Assembly: GCA_017621455.1 (NCBI GenBank)
Contig: JAGATC010000017.1
Location: 113,172-177,171 of the forward strand
DNA: 64,000 nucleotides
DNA from: Alistipes sp.
Lineage (GTDB): Bacteria > Bacteroidota > Bacteroidia > Bacteroidales > Rikenellaceae
Direction: 5' to 3'
The translations under genes and the position numbers were made by a program. The notes under the pieces were generated by a model, which did not search any database, had not been told where the DNA came from, and saw only the letters and a list, made by a program, of their open reading frames with translations. Below, piece by piece: positions 37,887 to 56,918 of this stretch (positions are counted from its first letter, which is position 1; every line of letters begins with the position of its first letter).

Positions 37887-38119
37887 TTACGCACAAAAAA
37901 AAGCGCGGGACAATTAGTTATATTCCCGCTCAGAGGTGTTTGGCGTAACCCGACAGAATAATACAACAAAAAGCCCACGCTATACAGCGCGAGCATTCCA
38001 ACTATTATTCCTTCTGTCTATTAGTCGCCAAACTTCCTGAGCAGCAGAATAAAGCTAAAACGCTTTTCCAATATGTCTAAAATGTGCGTATCAACTATAC
38101 GCTATGCTTCATAGGCAAT
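37887..38119 (-). ncRNA. Putative structured 5' leader RNA with terminator, family B copy 1
   Basis: ~235-nt repeat of 47771-48004; nested stems with compensatory changes; ends GCGGGA..TCCCGC-GC-T8. Confidence 0.65.
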
Positions 38120-38198
38120 GTTTGTTTAAGTATTGATTATTAAGGTGTCTTATTTAAAAAACCTTAAACCCATATTGTCTTCGTCTCCAATATTAATG

Positions 38199-44517: not shown

Positions 44518-44889
44518 ATGAAACGGCTGTTTACAATCTTTACTATAACACTTGCGCTACTAACCATTGATTATGCCTCTGCGGCAGATTCAACAACGGC
44601 TGATAACACCATAGATAAGACCGAAATCACAGGTCGTGTGAGTGCAAACGACTGCCACATTATCGCCTATGATGCTACCAAAGGTGAGAAAATTATAGTA
44701 GAACTATATGGCGATGGCGATACAGACCTCGCACTATATGTCTACGATAAGGAGGAAAGGCTAATTGTGGATGATGAACTCAGCGATGATGGCACCTATG
44801 GTTGGACGGCAGAGTATACAGGTAAGTATTATATTGTTGTAAAGAATCAAGGTGACGTGTATAACGAATTTAGGATGGTTATCCAGTAG
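44518..44889 (+). CDS. Small secreted protein with pre-peptidase C-terminal (PPC)-like domain
   Basis: Signal peptide; GDGDTDLALYVYD and TGKYYIVVKN motifs. Confidence 0.6.
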   Translation: MKRLFTIFTITLALLTIDYASAADSTTADNTIDKTEITGRVSANDCHIIAYDATKGEKIIVELYGDGDTDLALYVYDKEERLIVDDELSDDGTYGWTAEYTGKYYIVVKNQGDVYNEFRMVIQ

Positions 44890-45073
44890 CCCCACGACTG
44901 GTTATTATTTTCCATACGATAAAATAGTGGCCTATTTATCGCAAAATAGATAGATGCAAACAATTTTATTTTACACTCAATCGTTATATTGGCACGAGTA
45001 TTGCAAAAGACTCTGACAGCTACGTTGGCAACGAGACAACGTAGTTAGGTTTCTTCATTTATTTAAGTTTGGG

Positions 45074-45798
45074 TTAGTAGTTTTTACAGAATTTGTTTCT
45101 GGAAGGCGAGCGGCAGTCGTGAGACTCCCGCTCGTTCTTTTTTATGACAAATTCTGTAAAAACTATGACTGCTCCCGCGGCGTGGCAGAGTAACCTGCGA
45201 GTTTGTATGATAGTTTGGCGTATTGCTACGCAATAAGCGTGGTTGTGCCGTAGGTCTTTTGCAAACAAGTTCACATAGACCAACGACACAACCACACACG
45301 TCTTCGTCGTCGCCAAACCATCATACCTCCTCTTGCTCTGCGCAAACCTTAAGGAGAGTTAGTAGTTTGTTAAAGGTGTTACGCTGCGCTCCACAAAAGT
45401 ATTAATAGAATTTGTTTCTGGAGAATAGGCGGCAGTTGTGAAACTCCCGCCTATTTCTTTTGTTTATTTCTGTAAAAACTATGACGATTCGGTGGCGGCT
45501 CGGATGACTTATCTTGTGTATTGTGTGGCAAAGATGCTATGCATCCAATGTGTCTGCTTTGACACCAAGCACCTCATATAAATATGGCTGACTTGTTGCC
45601 AAATCAGCCACACATCTACGATGTTGCGCCACACAACACCCTGCGGTCACCTCTCGCCTGCTGCGAACGTTAGTAGTTTTGGCGTGCTACCCCGCTGGTC
45701 GTGCGTAGCACAAACAGTTGTCCTATGAAATAGTTTTTTACAGAATTTGTTTCTGGAAGGCGAGCGGCAGTCGTGAGACTCCCGCTCGTTCTTTTTTT
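45074..45798. repeat. Non-coding mosaic of interrelated structured repeats
   Basis: Core GAATTTGTTTCTGGA at 45089, 45408 and 45743, each followed by a GCGGCAGT.GTGA.ACTCCCGC hairpin; family-B-like stem at 45205-45326. Confidence 0.8.
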
Positions 45799-46950
45799 TT
45801 ATTCCTTTTCATTTATTGTATATAGTATATCATGCAGATAGTCAAATATCATTTGTTTACTTTGACATAGATGGTCGACCTCACTAATATTTTGTCCTTC
45901 ACTAGCGATGAAAGAGTGGTATGGACACCCTCCATTACAAATATAAAAGTATCCACATTTGTTTTGTGCACACTTGTTTATAGCCTCTACTCTTTGATCT
46001 ATTAACTCGCACATTTTTTTTGATTCCACGGATAATAACTCCAAAAGAGTAGACTGCTGAATATTTCCCAACATCATATTATCAGAACCAGTAAATTTGG
46101 GACACAAATAGGCATCTCCATTTGGAGTTAACGCAACAAAATTAGTCAAACACCTACCGCCATATGTACAAATGGTATCGCTAATAGGTGCTTGTTTTTG
46201 CAGACATTTAATAATGTCATACACAGTTCTAGGCACTGGTGAAATTTTTCCTCGCTCAACCCAGGCATTAAATTCAGATATAAAGTATCTCGCTACATCT
46301 TCTTTTGACAATGCAATGCTATTATCTTTGACATTATTCTTTTCATAGTATATATATGGATTACTATGAAAAGAATTCACCTCAAGTTGTTGAAAACACT
46401 CAAGCATCTCATTTTCAAACCCCAAATTATTTTTTGTGATAGTACTAATAAAACCGCAAGACGCTCCTTTATCTCGAATATAATTCATCGTTTTAACAAC
46501 AGCATCATACGAACCTTGATTAGTGTTGGTTGGTCGATTCTGATTGTGAATTGTACGAGTGCCATCTATGGTTGTTGATATTGAAAATTCATTCTCTATC
46601 AAAAAATCAATAAGTCCAGGATCAAAAAGATTACCACTTGTTTGGACACAATTTTCATATGGTTTAGTTGAGTGTTTCTTCTGGAGTTCAATAACATTCT
46701 CAAAGAAATATTTGCCAACCAAAAGAGGCTCTCCTCCAGTCCATTCAAAAACTACATAACTATGATTTGTTTGAAATGCTTGGTATATGGCCTGATCTAA
46801 CAACTCTATTGGGAATGTTATAGGCTTACCATTATGCGTTCCTTTGGCGAAACAATATTTGCACGAAAGAACACATTTATCCGTAAGTTGAAAGATAACA
46901 TTTAATGTATTACACTCTCTTAATCGTGAGATATATTCGGTTCGCAACAT
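45799..46950 (-). CDS. Radical SAM/SPASM domain protein, putative peptide maturase
   Basis: CVLSCKYC (CxxxCxxC), WTGGEPLL, STTIDG; SPASM cysteines CTYGGRC..GDAYLC..CAQNKCGYFYICNGGCP..HLC; start taken at MLRTEY. Confidence 0.92.
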   Translation of the reverse strand: MLRTEYISRLRECNTLNVIFQLTDKCVLSCKYCFAKGTHNGKPITFPIELLDQAIYQAFQTNHSYVVFEWTGGEPLLVGKYFFENVIELQKKHSTKPYENCVQTSGNLFDPGLIDFLIENEFSISTTIDGTRTIHNQNRPTNTNQGSYDAVVKTMNYIRDKGASCGFISTITKNNLGFENEMLECFQQLEVNSFHSNPYIYYEKNNVKDNSIALSKEDVARYFISEFNAWVERGKISPVPRTVYDIIKCLQKQAPISDTICTYGGRCLTNFVALTPNGDAYLCPKFTGSDNMMLGNIQQSTLLELLSVESKKMCELIDQRVEAINKCAQNKCGYFYICNGGCPYHSFIASEGQNISEVDHLCQSKQMIFDYLHDILYTINEKE

Positions 46951-46969
46951 ATAGGTAATATTAAAAATA

Positions 46970-46998
46970 GGGGGCGATTTCATACAACAATCGCCCCT
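46970..46998 (-). terminator. Stem-loop/partial terminator between precursor and rSAM genes
   Basis: GGGGCGATT/AATCGCCCC stem followed by TATTTTT on the minus strand. Confidence 0.65.
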
Positions 46999-47067
46999 TG
47001 TTGTCATTTAGAAAACATTAATTGCTCTTATACATCTTCCTGCAACACTCTTTCTGGATTATATAGA

Positions 47068-47538
47068 TTAGTTACATTCGTAATAAGAATCCCTATTTGA
47101 ATGTTTATCTGTGTGGTGTTTATTTCCAGAATTAGTGTGACTTTGAACAGGATTTCTATTTGTATGCCTATCAGAATGAGGATCACAAAATTCAACCCTT
47201 TCCTGAGTTCCATCATCCTTCGTTACCCACTTATAGCTACTCTTGGCGTTAGTATTACTGTGGCTGTCTGAATGATTTGTATTAGCATGATGGTCAGCGT
47301 GATTATTACCAATGTTTGTGTGCACATCTGAATGAACCATTAATCCAGATTCGGAAGTATAATTACTATGTAATGGACTTATCAGATCAATAACTTCATT
47401 TTTACAAACTTCCATTATATCTTGTTCTGGCACCTGCAGCATAGTGGGTTCCGCTGCATTCGCAGCTGAGATTGATAACACACTTGCAGGTATTGTAATG
47501 CCTAATTTTATAGCAATTTCTTTTGCGCTCTTTTTCAT
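47068..47538 (-). CDS. His-rich repeat protein, putative RiPP precursor (H-x-D-x-H-x-N repeats)
   Basis: Signal-like leader ending AANA-A; 12 H-[STA]-[DN] motifs; lies directly upstream of the rSAM/SPASM gene. Confidence 0.8.
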   Translation of the reverse strand: MKKSAKEIAIKLGITIPASVLSISAANAAEPTMLQVPEQDIMEVCKNEVIDLISPLHSNYTSESGLMVHSDVHTNIGNNHADHHANTNHSDSHSNTNAKSSYKWVTKDDGTQERVEFCDPHSDRHTNRNPVQSHTNSGNKHHTDKHSNRDSYYECN

Positions 47539-47550
47539 AGTTATCAAATA

Positions 47551-47703
47551 TTAGTCATCAAACACACTTTCATCTCCAGTTAGTCCATAATTGTATCCAT
47601 CCCAAAATGCCTCATACTCCTCAGGTGTACAAGATGTTGTCAATAGACATATAGACACTGATAAAATGATTACAAAGAACATTGATTTTATTAACTTTTT
47701 CAT
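47551..47703 (-). CDS. 50-aa small lipoprotein (not in ORF track)
   Basis: Hand translation MKKLIKSMFFVIILSVSICLLTTS-CTPEEYEAFWDGYNYGLTGDESVFDD*; AT-rich run before the ATG; stop 12 nt before the precursor ATG. Confidence 0.7.
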   Translation of the reverse strand: MKKLIKSMFFVIILSVSICLLTTSCTPEEYEAFWDGYNYGLTGDESVFDD

Positions 47704-47770
47704 AATTAAAGTTAGGATACCAAATCATTTTTGCTCAATTCAATCCCGTTACTCCAATCTCATCTCACTT

Positions 47771-48004
47771 TTACGCACAAAAAAAGCGCGGGACAATTAG
47801 TTATATTCCCACTTCGAGGTGTTTGGCGTAACCCAGGTAGATGAATAACTAAAAGCCCGCACCGAATAGTGCGAGCATTTCAACTATTATTCCCATCTAC
47901 CTTTTTTAGTCGCCAAACTTCCGAAGTGATAGAATAAAGCTAAAACGCTTTTCCAATATGTCTAAAATGTGCGTATTAACTATACGCTATGCTTCATAGG
48001 CAAT
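47771..48004 (-). ncRNA. Putative structured 5' leader RNA with terminator, family B copy 2
   Basis: Repeat of 37887-38119 with compensatory stem changes; ends GTGGGA..TCCCGC-GC-T7. Confidence 0.65.
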
Positions 48005-48080
48005 ATCTCTTTAAGTGATTTACAAAATTCATGTCGGCCCTAAATACCATCAATACACTGCATATTTCACAATGATAGTA

Positions 48081-48112
48081 CAAATATACGAATTTCTTAT
48101 GCAAAAACCAAA
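48081..48112 (-). promoter_or_regulatory. Promoter upstream of leader B2 / RiPP operon
   Basis: Minus strand TTTG-N20-TATATTTG. Confidence 0.7.
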
Positions 48113-48197
48113 TGTTTACCCACCATAATTTGTTTCTGGAGAGGGAGTGTGGATATATAAAATAACAAACCGTCAAGATAACTTAACGGTTTGAATT

Positions 48198-48800
48198 TTA
48201 TAGACGCTCCTTTATGATTTTTGCCCATTCGGGAATTGGTCCACTGTACTCCTTCGCGACTTTGCCTTCGACTGTTCTAAATAGTGGTCGAGCATCGCAA
48301 TTCTCTGCCGAGTTATCGTAGAGATAGCAACGATCGACTACACGGGCTACCTCAACACAATTAGCGATAGATAGATTGTAGCGTGAGATAATTTTAGATA
48401 TTGGCACATCGTGACCACCTTGCATAACTCGTCGAGCAATACGCGATGCATTTATCGTGGGAGACTCCGTGCACACAAAGAACACCCTAACAAAGAATCC
48501 AGCCGCCTTTGCTCTACGGATATAATCGACCTTATCTTTACGCGAAAGTACCGTTTCGAAGATAAGACTCTTACCCTCAGCAAGAGATTTCTCGCGCAAC
48601 GCCTCACAGTAAGCGATAGACTTCTTAACAGCCTCCGCCGAGTTCCAATCACCAAATTGCTCTTGTGCAACGATATCAGGATTGATATATATAGCATCCT
48701 CCATCCACTCGTGACGCAAGATCTGTTCTGTCACAGTCGTTTTGCCCGACCCGTTGGGCCCAGCGATAACTATCAAAACAGGTTTGTGATTATTTACCAT
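48198..48800 (-). CDS. Zeta-toxin-like/AAA_33 P-loop protein
   Basis: AGPNGSGKT Walker A, YINPD, FETVLS, RVMQGGHDVP, LYDNS; start taken at MVNNHK. Confidence 0.85.
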   Translation of the reverse strand: MVNNHKPVLIVIAGPNGSGKTTVTEQILRHEWMEDAIYINPDIVAQEQFGDWNSAEAVKKSIAYCEALREKSLAEGKSLIFETVLSRKDKVDYIRRAKAAGFFVRVFFVCTESPTINASRIARRVMQGGHDVPISKIISRYNLSIANCVEVARVVDRCYLYDNSAENCDARPLFRTVEGKVAKEYSGPIPEWAKIIKERL

Positions 48801-48987
48801 CGCTACAAGTGTACTCTGCCAAATTGTCCGACACCAACTGCTCCAACTCGGCGCGGAATTTTGCCTCAACCTCGGCACCACGACGACGAGCCTCCTCGCC
48901 CGCTGCGTGCATCAAGGCTTCAAGCTGTTCATCTGTAGGCTCTTCAATACCAGTGAGACGATATTTCTTTAACTCTTGCTCCGACAT
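48790..48987 (-). CDS. Small helical protein, putative antitoxin
   Basis: 65 aa (EEPTDEQLEALM); overlaps the start of the P-loop gene; own promoter TTTG-N20-TAACTTTG containing an ATTATT/AATAAT palindrome. Confidence 0.6.
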   Translation of the reverse strand: MSEQELKKYRLTGIEEPTDEQLEALMHAAGEEARRRGAEVEAKFRAELEQLVSDNLAEYTCSDGK

Positions 48988-49070
48988 AATGAGAATCATT
49001 GGTTTCTGCAAAGTTAGCAATTATTAAGCAATAATACAAAACTCGCTCTATTTTTATTGCTCGGGAGTTT

Positions 49071-49161
49071 TCTTGCTCTGCGCAAACCTTAAAGAACGTT
49101 AGTAGTTTATAAAAGGTGTTACGCTGCGCTCCACAAAAGAGTTAATGAATTTGTTTCTGGA
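49071..49161. repeat. ~92-bp direct repeat of 45331-45422
   Basis: About 8 differences in 92 nt by manual alignment; ends in the GAATTTGTTTCTGGA core. Confidence 0.85.
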
Positions 49162-49167
49162 AGGCAG

Positions 49168-50055
49168 TTAATACCTTACCTTAAAATAGTCGAGTACCGC
49201 TTTGTAGTTATCTTGTGCCGTTAGGCAGGTATCGCGCAGATACTCCTTAATGCGAGGCCACTCACGCAGACCACGATAGTAGAACATTTTTAGTTCATCG
49301 GTGATGATAAATGGCACATGGCCATTTGCCAGGCACTCCTTGAACATCACAAGGCGGCCTACACGACCATTGCCATCCTGGAATGGGTGTATCGCCTCGA
49401 AACGCTGATGCAGGTCGATAATATCCTCGAATGACTTTCGCTTCTTGCCGTTATACTCCTTGAAGAGTGCCTTTATCTCACGATGTACATCTTCGGGTGC
49501 GGTGGTCTCGTTGCCACCCACCTCGTTAGGGAGACGTTTATAGTCGCCAACGGTAAACCAATCCTTGCGACTATCCGAAGTGCCCATCTTTAGCGTCGAG
49601 TGCAACTCCTTGATAAGGCTCTCGGTAAGTCGCTCCTCTGCTCGGTCGATAATAAGGTCGATGCAACGGAAGTGATTAGTAGTCTCGATGATATCATCCA
49701 CACGCACGCTCTCACCCTCGATGCCAATAGTATTGGTCTCGAAGATGTAGCGTGTCTGGTCGTGTGTCAGACGACTGCCCTCGATATGGTTGGAGTTATA
49801 TGTAAGGTCGATTTGTGTCTTGTGATAGATGCCACCTTTGAGCTTCGCTTCCTTCTCTTGGCGCAGAACAACAAGCAATGGCATCGCCTTGCGCTGCCGA
49901 GGCTTACGCCCTGGCAACTCCGCATCGGCAGGGATGTTCCACGTCTTACCCACAAGGGTTGCGCCCTCAATCTTTCCGAGAGCACAATAATTACGCGCTG
50001 TACGCTCCGAGACGCCATACTTGGCAGCAAAATCTGTTACTGAAATATACTTCAT
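49168..50055 (-). CDS. HTH + Fic family protein
   Basis: N-terminal HTH (VSERTARNYC); HPFQDGNGRVGR Fic motif. Confidence 0.92.
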   Translation of the reverse strand: MKYISVTDFAAKYGVSERTARNYCALGKIEGATLVGKTWNIPADAELPGRKPRQRKAMPLLVVLRQEKEAKLKGGIYHKTQIDLTYNSNHIEGSRLTHDQTRYIFETNTIGIEGESVRVDDIIETTNHFRCIDLIIDRAEERLTESLIKELHSTLKMGTSDSRKDWFTVGDYKRLPNEVGGNETTAPEDVHREIKALFKEYNGKKRKSFEDIIDLHQRFEAIHPFQDGNGRVGRLVMFKECLANGHVPFIITDELKMFYYRGLREWPRIKEYLRDTCLTAQDNYKAVLDYFKVRY

Positions 50056-50311
50056 ACGCTACGACTATCGGCAAGTTTAAGGCCGATTACTCGATGCAAA
50101 TATAGCAATTCTTGCCGATAACGGCAAATTAATCCTGTGTTTTCAATGATTTATTTACCTCATTATATCTTTCCCTTATAGCGCCATAAGAATATATGAT
50201 TAATGATTTTAACCAAAAACACTTGTGCTTTTATTTTTTATTTATACTTTTGCATCGGAATAATATTTGATTATACCGTAAGCAAACAAAATAAATAAAA
50301 GATATACTACT

Positions 50312-51025: not shown

Positions 51026-51099
51026 TGACTCCGCCAGGATTCAAACCTGGAACCGCTTGATCCGTAGTCAAGTACTCTATTCAGTTGAGCTACGGAGCC
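51026..51099 (-). tRNA. tRNA-Arg(ACG)
   Basis: GGCTCCG acceptor stem; anticodon arm CTTGA-CTACGGA-TCAAG; GGTTTGAATCC T-arm. Confidence 0.95.
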
Positions 51100-55167: not shown

Positions 55168-55251
55168 TGCCCAGGACAAGACTCGAACTTGCACGAGCTA
55201 ATGCTCACTACCCCCTCAAAGTAGCGTGTCTACCAATTTCACCACCTGGGC
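55168..55251 (-). tRNA. tRNA-Leu(GAG)
   Basis: GCCCAGG acceptor stem; anticodon loop TTGAGGG; long variable arm; GTTCGAGTC T-loop. Confidence 0.95.
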
Positions 55252-56683: not shown

Positions 56684-56739
56684 ACGTTAAATTCAATTAC
56701 AAGTTATAAACGTATGGAAGGGGAATTGCGTATAAAATA

Positions 56740-56790
56740 TGCCTTTTAGCAATTTTTTATTGTGGTTGCAATAAGTCCAAATCCTTCCAC
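56740..56790 (-). promoter_or_regulatory. SAM-II-type riboswitch in the metK leader
   Basis: GUGG-AAG-GAUUU-GGACUUAU-UGCAA-CCAC-AAUAAAAAAU-UGCUAAAAGG matches the SAM-II core (P1 GUGG/CCAC); TACCTTTG promoter box at 56806-56813. Confidence 0.75.
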
Positions 56791-56918
56791 ATTGGTTTTC
56801 GGCTGCAAAGGTAATAAAAAAAAGTGACGGGCAAATATTTCGGTAAAATTATTTTCTTATAGTGACATAGGCAGGGCTGATAGCATAATCGGAGAGGGGT
56901 GCTATTAGCACCACAAAC

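Follow-up and report, generated by a model that had tools for sequence, protein, structure and literature searches.

Integrons are serial arrays of short modules, nearly all in one orientation and separated by imperfectly palindromic repeats, and chromosomal super-integrons are rich in toxin-antitoxin cargo. At tRNA, tmRNA and ryeA-ryeB islands, acquired DNA piles up 3' of a conserved small-RNA gene; the ryeA/ryeB small RNA (sRNA) locus of Salmonella is an insertion hot spot according to Balbontin et al. (2008, J Bacteriol 190:4075), as cited in PMC3384567. The sigma-54 sRNAs Qrr1-5 of Vibrio, GlmY/GlmZ and CrcZ/CrcY are short RNAs with a -24/-12 promoter, an intrinsic terminator and a single-stranded segment that does not vary, and they come in paralogous or tandem copies. 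We describe here a locus that resembles each of these systems in the listed traits. It lies in a 64,000-nt stretch of an Alistipes sp. assembly (GCA_017621455.1, contig JAGATC010000017.1, positions 113,172 to 177,171; hereafter the window) and consists of three predicted plus-strand RNA genes (U0, U1 and U2), followed by minus-strand accessory genes, or cargo, that are mixed with fragments of the RNA units.

An earlier note, made from the sequence alone, had read this locus as a serial-integration hotspot or an integron-like gene-capture platform, with a repeated 14-15-bp core as the recombination site. We find that the core is stem-loop 2 (SL2) plus two bases of a plus-strand small RNA gene, and no free-standing recombination site. 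The tandem RNA gene array probably became a landing pad for accessory genes through imprecise recombination, without any capture machine. The coordinates of all features are given in Table 1.

The core repeat and the RNA genes that contain it

The 14-nt core AATTTGTTTCTGGA occurs as an exact match at 45090, 45409, 45744, 48127 and 49148, always on the plus strand of the window. In dinucleotide-preserving shuffles of the window 0.42 matches are expected, and none of 100 shuffles reached five, which confirms the five same-orientation copies of the earlier note. The leading G that it had included is present in four copies, and the copy at 48127 is preceded by T. The longer shared blocks that it had listed are also real: 45331-45406 and 49071-49146 are 91% identical, and 45081-45143 and 45735-45797 are 100% identical over 63 nt. 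Besides the five in the window, the whole 2.14-Mb genome contains only two copies of the core, both of them in a second array on contig 14, which makes seven in total. At 45078-45165, the core sits within a perfect 19-nt inverted repeat (TAGTTTTTACAGAATTTGT / ACAAATTCTGTAAAAACTA), which encloses a G+C-rich hairpin and a T-run, that is, a plus-strand intrinsic terminator. On inspection of the sequence, no copy of the core fits the Bacteroidota -7 promoter box (TAnnTTTG).

U0 is conserved throughout the genus and beyond. It was found in 274/301 genomes of the same genus, including 114 of the 122 high-quality ones, and an exact 30-nt piece of it is present in at least 120 contigs, most of which bear the label Alistipes, Tidjanibacter or Rikenellaceae, with a single one labelled as Alphaproteobacteria. 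A search of 148 other families of the order did not turn up this 30-nt piece. In an alignment of 109 copies, the order of elements is a 5' hairpin (SL1) rich in compensatory changes, an invariant, single-stranded segment of 34 nt (AGGUUUCUUCAUUUAUUUAAGUUUGGGUUAGUAG), the variable SL2 and the terminator. Among the 30 base pairs, 96.3% are canonical, and 17 pairs show double-sided changes, compared with 6-8 in shifted controls. SL2 itself changes between species and keeps its fold: 93% of 81 distinct variants, which comprise 45 different arm combinations, fold as a hairpin, compared with 34% of shuffles. In the subclade of the window SL2 is CAGAA-UUUGU-UUCUG followed by GA, which equals the core of the earlier note, and in an Alistipes laboratory isolate it takes the form CAGAAUUUGUUUCUG. 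Because the SL2 sequence varies between species, the exact core is confined to few of them (3 of 37 sampled genomes of the genus). The core therefore belongs to a widespread RNA element, the SL2 of a Rikenellaceae sRNA family.

The terminator stems covary as well (GCGAGCGG/CCGCTCG, ATAGGCGG/CCGCCTAT and CAGGGAG/CTCCCTG), and a second copy of the terminator hairpin maintains its pairing by compensatory change, with ATAGGCGG/CCGCCTAT in place of GCGAGCGG/CCGCTCG. The loop of the terminator, CAGUCGUGAGACU (window 45112-45125), is kept across Rikenellaceae while the stem covaries. Plain terminators do not usually keep a constant loop, so this one may be a binding site.

A sigma-54-type promoter was found upstream of U0, at a fixed distance, in 129 of 146 distinct copies, counting sites within 3 mismatches of the consensus (GG-N10-GC, TGGCAC-N5-TTGCA). 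The promoter of the window copy matches TGGCAC-N5-TTGCA exactly, as do just two other sites in the genome, which also encodes RpoN (PF04552, contig 5) and two full sigma-54 activators (PF00158, contigs 18 and 11). The other two exact sites (contig 9, 58523, and contig 14, 10056, both on the minus strand) are candidate members of the same regulon as U0. A scan of the window against Rfam 15 gave no match at gathering thresholds, and nothing meaningful was found in 44800-50200 up to E = 10. No description of a sigma-54-dependent sRNA from Bacteroides or Alistipes came up in limited searches of the literature. We conclude that U0 is a previously undescribed, Rikenellaceae-specific family of predicted small RNAs of Alistipes gut bacteria, putatively driven by sigma-54. 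On the minus strand of contig 9 (73282-73323), this genome has a further, degenerate segment that resembles U0 and includes a terminator-like hairpin. It immediately follows a partial copy of a tRNA 3' end and is located about 170 nt upstream of tRNA-Gly(CCC), a position that is probably the boundary of an island.

U1 and U2 are closed folds of about 270-320 nt, with the 5' end paired to the sequence immediately ahead of the core. Their predicted minimum free energies are -118.1 kcal/mol (z -6.9) for U1 (45144-45462) and -118.6 kcal/mol (z -5.2) for U2 (45460-45800). Based on 19 full-length units from 15 genomes, the unit consensus contains 58 base pairs, with 88.9% of the cells canonical (36-48% after sliding the partners by 1-3 columns) and double-sided changes in 30 pairs (7-11 in slid controls). 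Fold and covariation together identify U1 and U2 as plus-strand structured RNA genes and not spacers. The earlier note had listed them as two non-coding modules.

The two units share the 3' module of U0, consisting of GUUAGUAG, a variable insert, SL2 and terminator, and lack the rest of its invariant segment. Their 5' start is the reverse complement of GUAG...SL2. In the 60 nt after the U0 terminator, an 11-25-nt complement of the p3-SL2 region of the same species was detected in 58 of 122 distinct loci, compared with 2 of 122 for a control region (for example, ...TTTAGGAGGGGCAAC paired with GTTGCCCCTCCTAAA). As the complement tracks the sequence of each species, the complementarity is under selection. 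The predicted pairing could close the unit itself or join it to the 3' end of the preceding RNA, as in a sequestration of U0, or both.

The second array of this genome, on contig 14 at about 85.6-86.0 kb (L008 5600-6050, minus strand), starts with a U0-like copy that has neither the invariant segment nor the sigma-54 promoter. It continues with a U2-like unit, which over 220 nt is 95% identical to U2, and with a 3' fragment of U1 whose terminator is truncated. Small open reading frames (ORFs) for membrane proteins and lipoproteins follow on the opposite strand.

Table 1. Features of the RNA array, of the cargo modules and of a repeat family at related loci (window coordinates unless a locus is named)
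Feature	Position	Strand	Details
Sigma-54-type promoter of U0, TGGCACGAGTATTGCA	44990..45005	+	Exact match to TGGCAC-N5-TTGCA
U0 small RNA	45016..45143	+	Conservation, covariation, SL2 folding; predicted transcription start
U0 parts	SL1 45020-45044; invariant segment 45047-45080; SL2 45087-45103; terminator 45104-45143	+	
U1 structured RNA unit	45144..45462	+	p5 45147-45169, p3 45358-45368, SL2/core 45406-45422, terminator 45423-45460
U2 structured RNA unit	45460..45798	+	p5 45466-45485, p3 45669-45679, SL2/core 45741-45757, terminator 45758-45798
Radical S-adenosylmethionine (rSAM) module	45799..48126	-	rSAM gene 45799-47007, PF04055 match
ORFs upstream of rSAM	47068-47538; 47551-47703	-	His-rich ORF, 156 aa; lipoprotein, 50 aa
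Leader and promoter region of rSAM module	47704-48126	-	
Relic of unit 3' end	48127..48155	+	SL2/core and degenerate left terminator arm; homologous to the G187 junction "core+20 | zeta module"
Zeta-toxin-like module with 69-aa partner	48166..49070	-	Own terminator hairpin 48166-48193; promoter region
Zeta-like gene; 69-aa partner	48198-48800; 48790-48999	-	PF06414 match (zeta-like gene)
3' fragment of U1-type unit	49071..49165	+	p3 49098-49108, SL2/core 49145-49161; ends 4 nt past core
Fic-domain gene with upstream region	49168-50055; upstream region to 50130	-	PF02661 match; last module before flanking gpx
TTAGGGAGTTTAG / CTAAACTCCCTAA repeats	L052 ~2957; L057 ~3437; L069 ~3366; L070 ~3706; L061 ~4590; L067 ~3108		

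Cargo modules and their breakpoints in relatives

The order of the minus-strand genes is as described in the earlier note: Fic, the zeta-like gene with its partner, and then lipoprotein, His-rich ORF and rSAM. Each cargo module has upstream sequence of its own (50-420 nt), and in one of them inspection of the minus strand revealed a TAnnTTTG-type box at about 48085. The cores at 48127 and 49148, which lie between the modules, are relics of broken units. The U1-type 3' fragment that starts at 49071 is 91% identical to 45331-45422 of U1, and the stop codon of the Fic gene is 6 nt from the core of this fragment. The leader of the rSAM operon (47771-48016) has an 85% identical counterpart 10 kb away at 37887-38131. 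It represents a separate repeated family of structured leaders, of which another copy precedes a lipoprotein cargo in the related genome G187. Downstream of the array, the window contains two tRNA genes (51026-51099 and 55168-55251) and a SAM-II riboswitch (56736-56796) near the metK region, all on the minus strand; metK itself was seen in the conspecific contig L201.

Related species have accumulated different genes at the same place. At about 20 loci of the subclade, one to three units come after U0, and minus-strand genes mixed with unit fragments come next. The cargo families include Fic proteins (5 loci), zeta pairs (4 loci), ParE/ParD, a SEL1-repeat protein, a four-helix-bundle protein, many small lipoproteins and an 887-aa surface protein. 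Cargo is encoded on the strand opposite to the units in 16 of 17 distinct families and in 27 of 28 ORFs. The hotspot claim of the earlier note therefore stands, in the sense that different accessory modules accumulated in different Alistipes species, among repeat fragments and nearly all in one direction. In the wider family, a unit that ends in the SL2 of its own species was found at 14 of 57 loci, and cargo-sized gaps at only 4 of 57.

In relatives, the core is not where the breakpoints fall. Cargo starts downstream of it at core+2, +3, +4, +8, +10, +12, +14, +20, +23, +25, +28 or past the full terminator, and the downstream breakpoints as a whole extend from core+2 to core+45. Unit fragments upstream begin at core-0, -3, -9, -24, -27 or -76. 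Further breaks map to p3+0, p3+32 and p3+38 and to p5+10, +24, +26 and +38, so that more than 20 different positions are found in all. Clustering at the junction palindrome was rejected, because an unbiased BLAST search with whole units also finds breaks within their variable region (V46-62 and V122-130). Breakpoints are thus spread over the whole unit, which does not support the core as a recombination site. The earlier note had named breakpoints away from the core, or a core within a widespread element, as refuting its reading, and both were found here.

Individual junctions differ in structure. Three unrelated cargos begin right after GTTAGTAGTTT, and two of them end at SL2; in intact units the gap after GTTAGTAGTTT holds inserts of 0-95 nt. 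At L056 and L064, cargo replaces unit sequence without duplication. In G187, the zeta module is flanked by a duplication of about 110 nt of the U1 3' end, from TCTTGCTCTGC to core+20; this module is 84% identical to that of the window, and both junctions are the same. The "core+3/4 | Fic" junction is also present in G296 and G388 (three species together), with different sequence to its left, and Fic orthologues were found within the arrays of 4 other species. In G387 (L060 113-2808), zeta, gpx and Fic are inverted and lie upstream of U0 when compared with other species, an arrangement that indicates an inversion, plausibly between inverted unit ends.

At least six cargo/unit junctions of relatives contain degenerate short repeats, TTAGGGAGTTTAG / CTAAACTCCCTAA, which at L061 run into the ORF of a four-helix-bundle protein (23S-IVS/Avd-like). 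These repeats may form a separate small mobile or repeat family.

No recombinase was found to be linked to the array. The contig of the window has no match to PF00589 (tyrosine recombinase), in agreement with the earlier note, which had seen no integrase in the window. Among 12 array-bearing genomes we found only housekeeping Xer-like genes, either on a contig other than that of the array or between 4.5 kb and more than 50 kb away from it, and neither an integrase nor an integrase remnant was detected in about 24 arrays. A recurrent 429-aa ORF that was considered as an integrase candidate is MetK. A retron, considered because of the inverted repeats that surround a long hairpin, was rejected as well, since 5 of the 12 genomes have no PF00078 match and the reverse transcriptase genes of the others are on other contigs.

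The locus is stable within the species. We compared about 23 conspecific assemblies, selected because they encode an identical left-flank protein or an identical Fic protein, and including two strain variants. In all of them the 910-nt RNA array is the same and rSAM, zeta and Fic come after it, and gain or loss of modules was not observed. A homologue of the rSAM module (window 45839-48012, 73% identical) is present in the related genome G258 (contig 25) with no unit fragment nearby. There it lies between homologues of two contig-1 segments that are only about 220 nt apart in the genome of the window, which thus has the corresponding empty site. The G412 genome is similar, again with a site free of units.

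Explanations for the landing pad

We consider it probable, with moderate confidence, that the tandem plus-strand RNA genes turned into a landing pad for accessory genes by imprecise recombination. Direct and inverted repeats abound in the U0/U1/U2 array, and its gene copies are redundant. The rSAM operon, the zeta pair and Fic, putatively self-promoted modules of the minus strand, would have entered it by imprecise events. Homologous recombination or inversion between unit copies would then have reshuffled the modules, leaving unit fragments between them. One recombination through unit homology would be expected to yield a zeta module flanked by a duplicated U1 3' end, and with junctions that are identical between the window and G187, this event presumably happened once and was then inherited. 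The dispersed breakpoints, the shared Fic junction and the G387 inversion fit imprecise insertion followed by homologous exchange.

Several observations weigh against this account or against the RNA reading on which it builds. The orientation bias of the cargo is not predicted by random imprecise insertion. The exact cargo starts after GTTAGTAGTTT hint at a preferred insertion point. The right boundary of the rSAM module consists of the 14-nt core alone, which is short for homologous recombination. These three points leave a small probability for a directed mechanism. With respect to the RNAs, no promoter was recognised for U1 or U2; a sigma-54-like GG-N10-GC across core and left terminator arm was considered for this role and is unsupported, with 4 mismatches to the consensus, which include both T's of the -12 element. 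Start-codon target prediction for the invariant segment gave 254 sites at E <= -16, compared with 177 +/- 59 for shuffled sequences, which is not significant. Transcription of U0, U1 and U2 is predicted from sequence, and any regulatory role is putative.

Two alternatives would retain a site-specific origin. In one, the folded palindromic junction (p3-SL2-terminator-anti-SL2) would be recognised by a recombinase encoded elsewhere, with one-way insertion as at attC. Such a platform would account for the uniform orientation of 16 of 17 cargo families, for the unit fragments with SL2 that follow internal cargos, for the three exact starts after p3, for a junction that forms a palindrome of about 110 nt in several species, and for the direct repeats around the zeta module. 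However, it does not agree with more than 20 breakpoint positions, some of them inside the variable core of the units, and no integrase was found on the contig of the window or consistently near the arrays of 12 genomes. The lack of module polymorphism in conspecific assemblies and the presence of the rSAM module at unit-free sites also argue against the integron-like platform proposed in the earlier note, and with an SL2 that differs between species there is no conserved recombination core. We regard such a platform as very improbable, and likewise a reading in which the palindromic junction (GTTAGTAG, SL2, terminator and anti-SL2) would be the substrate of trans-acting, structure-specific recombination and sRNA genes would serve as attachment sites for orientation-specific capture. 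In the other alternative, the modules would be remnants of integrative islands that lost their integrases, and sRNA 3' ends their former attachment sites. RNA-gene 3' ends are known insertion hot spots, the Salmonella sRNA locus among them (Balbontin et al. 2008, as cited in PMC3384567), cargo is found 3' of intact units, and duplicated RNA-gene 3' ends flank the zeta module. Yet about 24 arrays contain no integrase or remnant of one, the modules measure just 1-2.4 kb, several cargos replace unit sequence without duplication (L056 and L064), and the crossover position varies by module, which makes an origin from decayed islands improbable.

Two further explanations do without a recombinase of this kind. 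Cargo could be kept convergent by selection because its mRNA 3' ends run antisense into SL2 and p3, so that U0 or unit RNAs, or transcriptional interference, would control toxin and secreted-protein genes and selection would maintain the core beside the cargo. The orientation bias, the position of the Fic stop codon 6 nt from the core in three species, and the selected complementarity between the RNA 5' and 3' modules would all be expected from such coupling. Against it, SL2 or p3 is wholly lost at many cargo junctions, and the zeta module has its own terminator ahead of the core; we consider functional coupling unlikely. The units might also be mobile themselves, as miniature inverted-repeat transposable elements with terminal inverted repeats of about 20-25 bp (p5 and p3-SL2) that inserted repeatedly beside genes. 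Each unit is indeed bounded by perfect 16-19-nt inverted repeats, and a second array exists on another contig. Only two genomic loci are occupied, however, and both arrays are beside a U0-type gene; the interior covariation is of RNA type with G-U pairs, the inverted repeat tracks the SL2 of its own species, and no target-site duplications were seen. We therefore regard mobile units as extremely improbable, and retain imprecise recombination into an RNA gene array as the preferred explanation.

Significance and comparison with described systems

The reading of the locus as a new integron is unsupported and is replaced by that of an RNA array serving as landing pad, an example of tandem RNA genes turning into a site of accumulation for toxin-antitoxin, Fic and secreted-protein genes. 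New is a small-RNA family of a common gut genus that is absent from Rfam 15 and contains 34 nt that do not vary within a bacterial family. Beside it is a partner RNA, and the 5' end of this partner evolves together with the 3' stem-loop of the sRNA. The pair may represent an sRNA and its sponge, or one RNA with two conformations, and is testable in cultured Alistipes. Very little is known of RNA regulation in Bacteroidota, and either candidate reading, if true, would add to it.

The resemblance to integrons is one of layout and of toxin-antitoxin-rich cargo. Unlike an integron, the locus has no IntI, no attI and no conserved crossover point (GTTAGTA does not fit the attC crossover GTTRRRY), and its breakpoints are dispersed. 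Its modules carry their own predicted promoters and show no turnover within the species, and the repeat between them is a structured-RNA gene on the opposite strand, predicted to be transcribed. Compared with islands at tRNA, tmRNA and ryeA-ryeB genes, the locus has in common the accumulation 3' of a conserved small-RNA gene and, for the zeta module, the flanking duplicated RNA-gene 3' ends. It differs in that integrase-bearing elements are missing and in that the RNA gene itself was amplified in tandem and broken at many positions.

As an RNA, U0 resembles the sigma-54 sRNAs in promoter type, invariant segment, terminator and tandem copies, whereas it has no sequence or Rfam relationship to them and belongs to Bacteroidota. 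The partner RNAs are also different, as they lack the invariant segment and start with the complement of the shared 3' module. In this respect the array resembles sRNA sponges and anti-sRNAs, since the sRNA is accompanied by an adjacent RNA with 11-25 nt that are complementary to it and co-evolve with it. The complement, however, matches the 3' stem-loop region and not the invariant "seed", and could equally be the closing helix of the unit.

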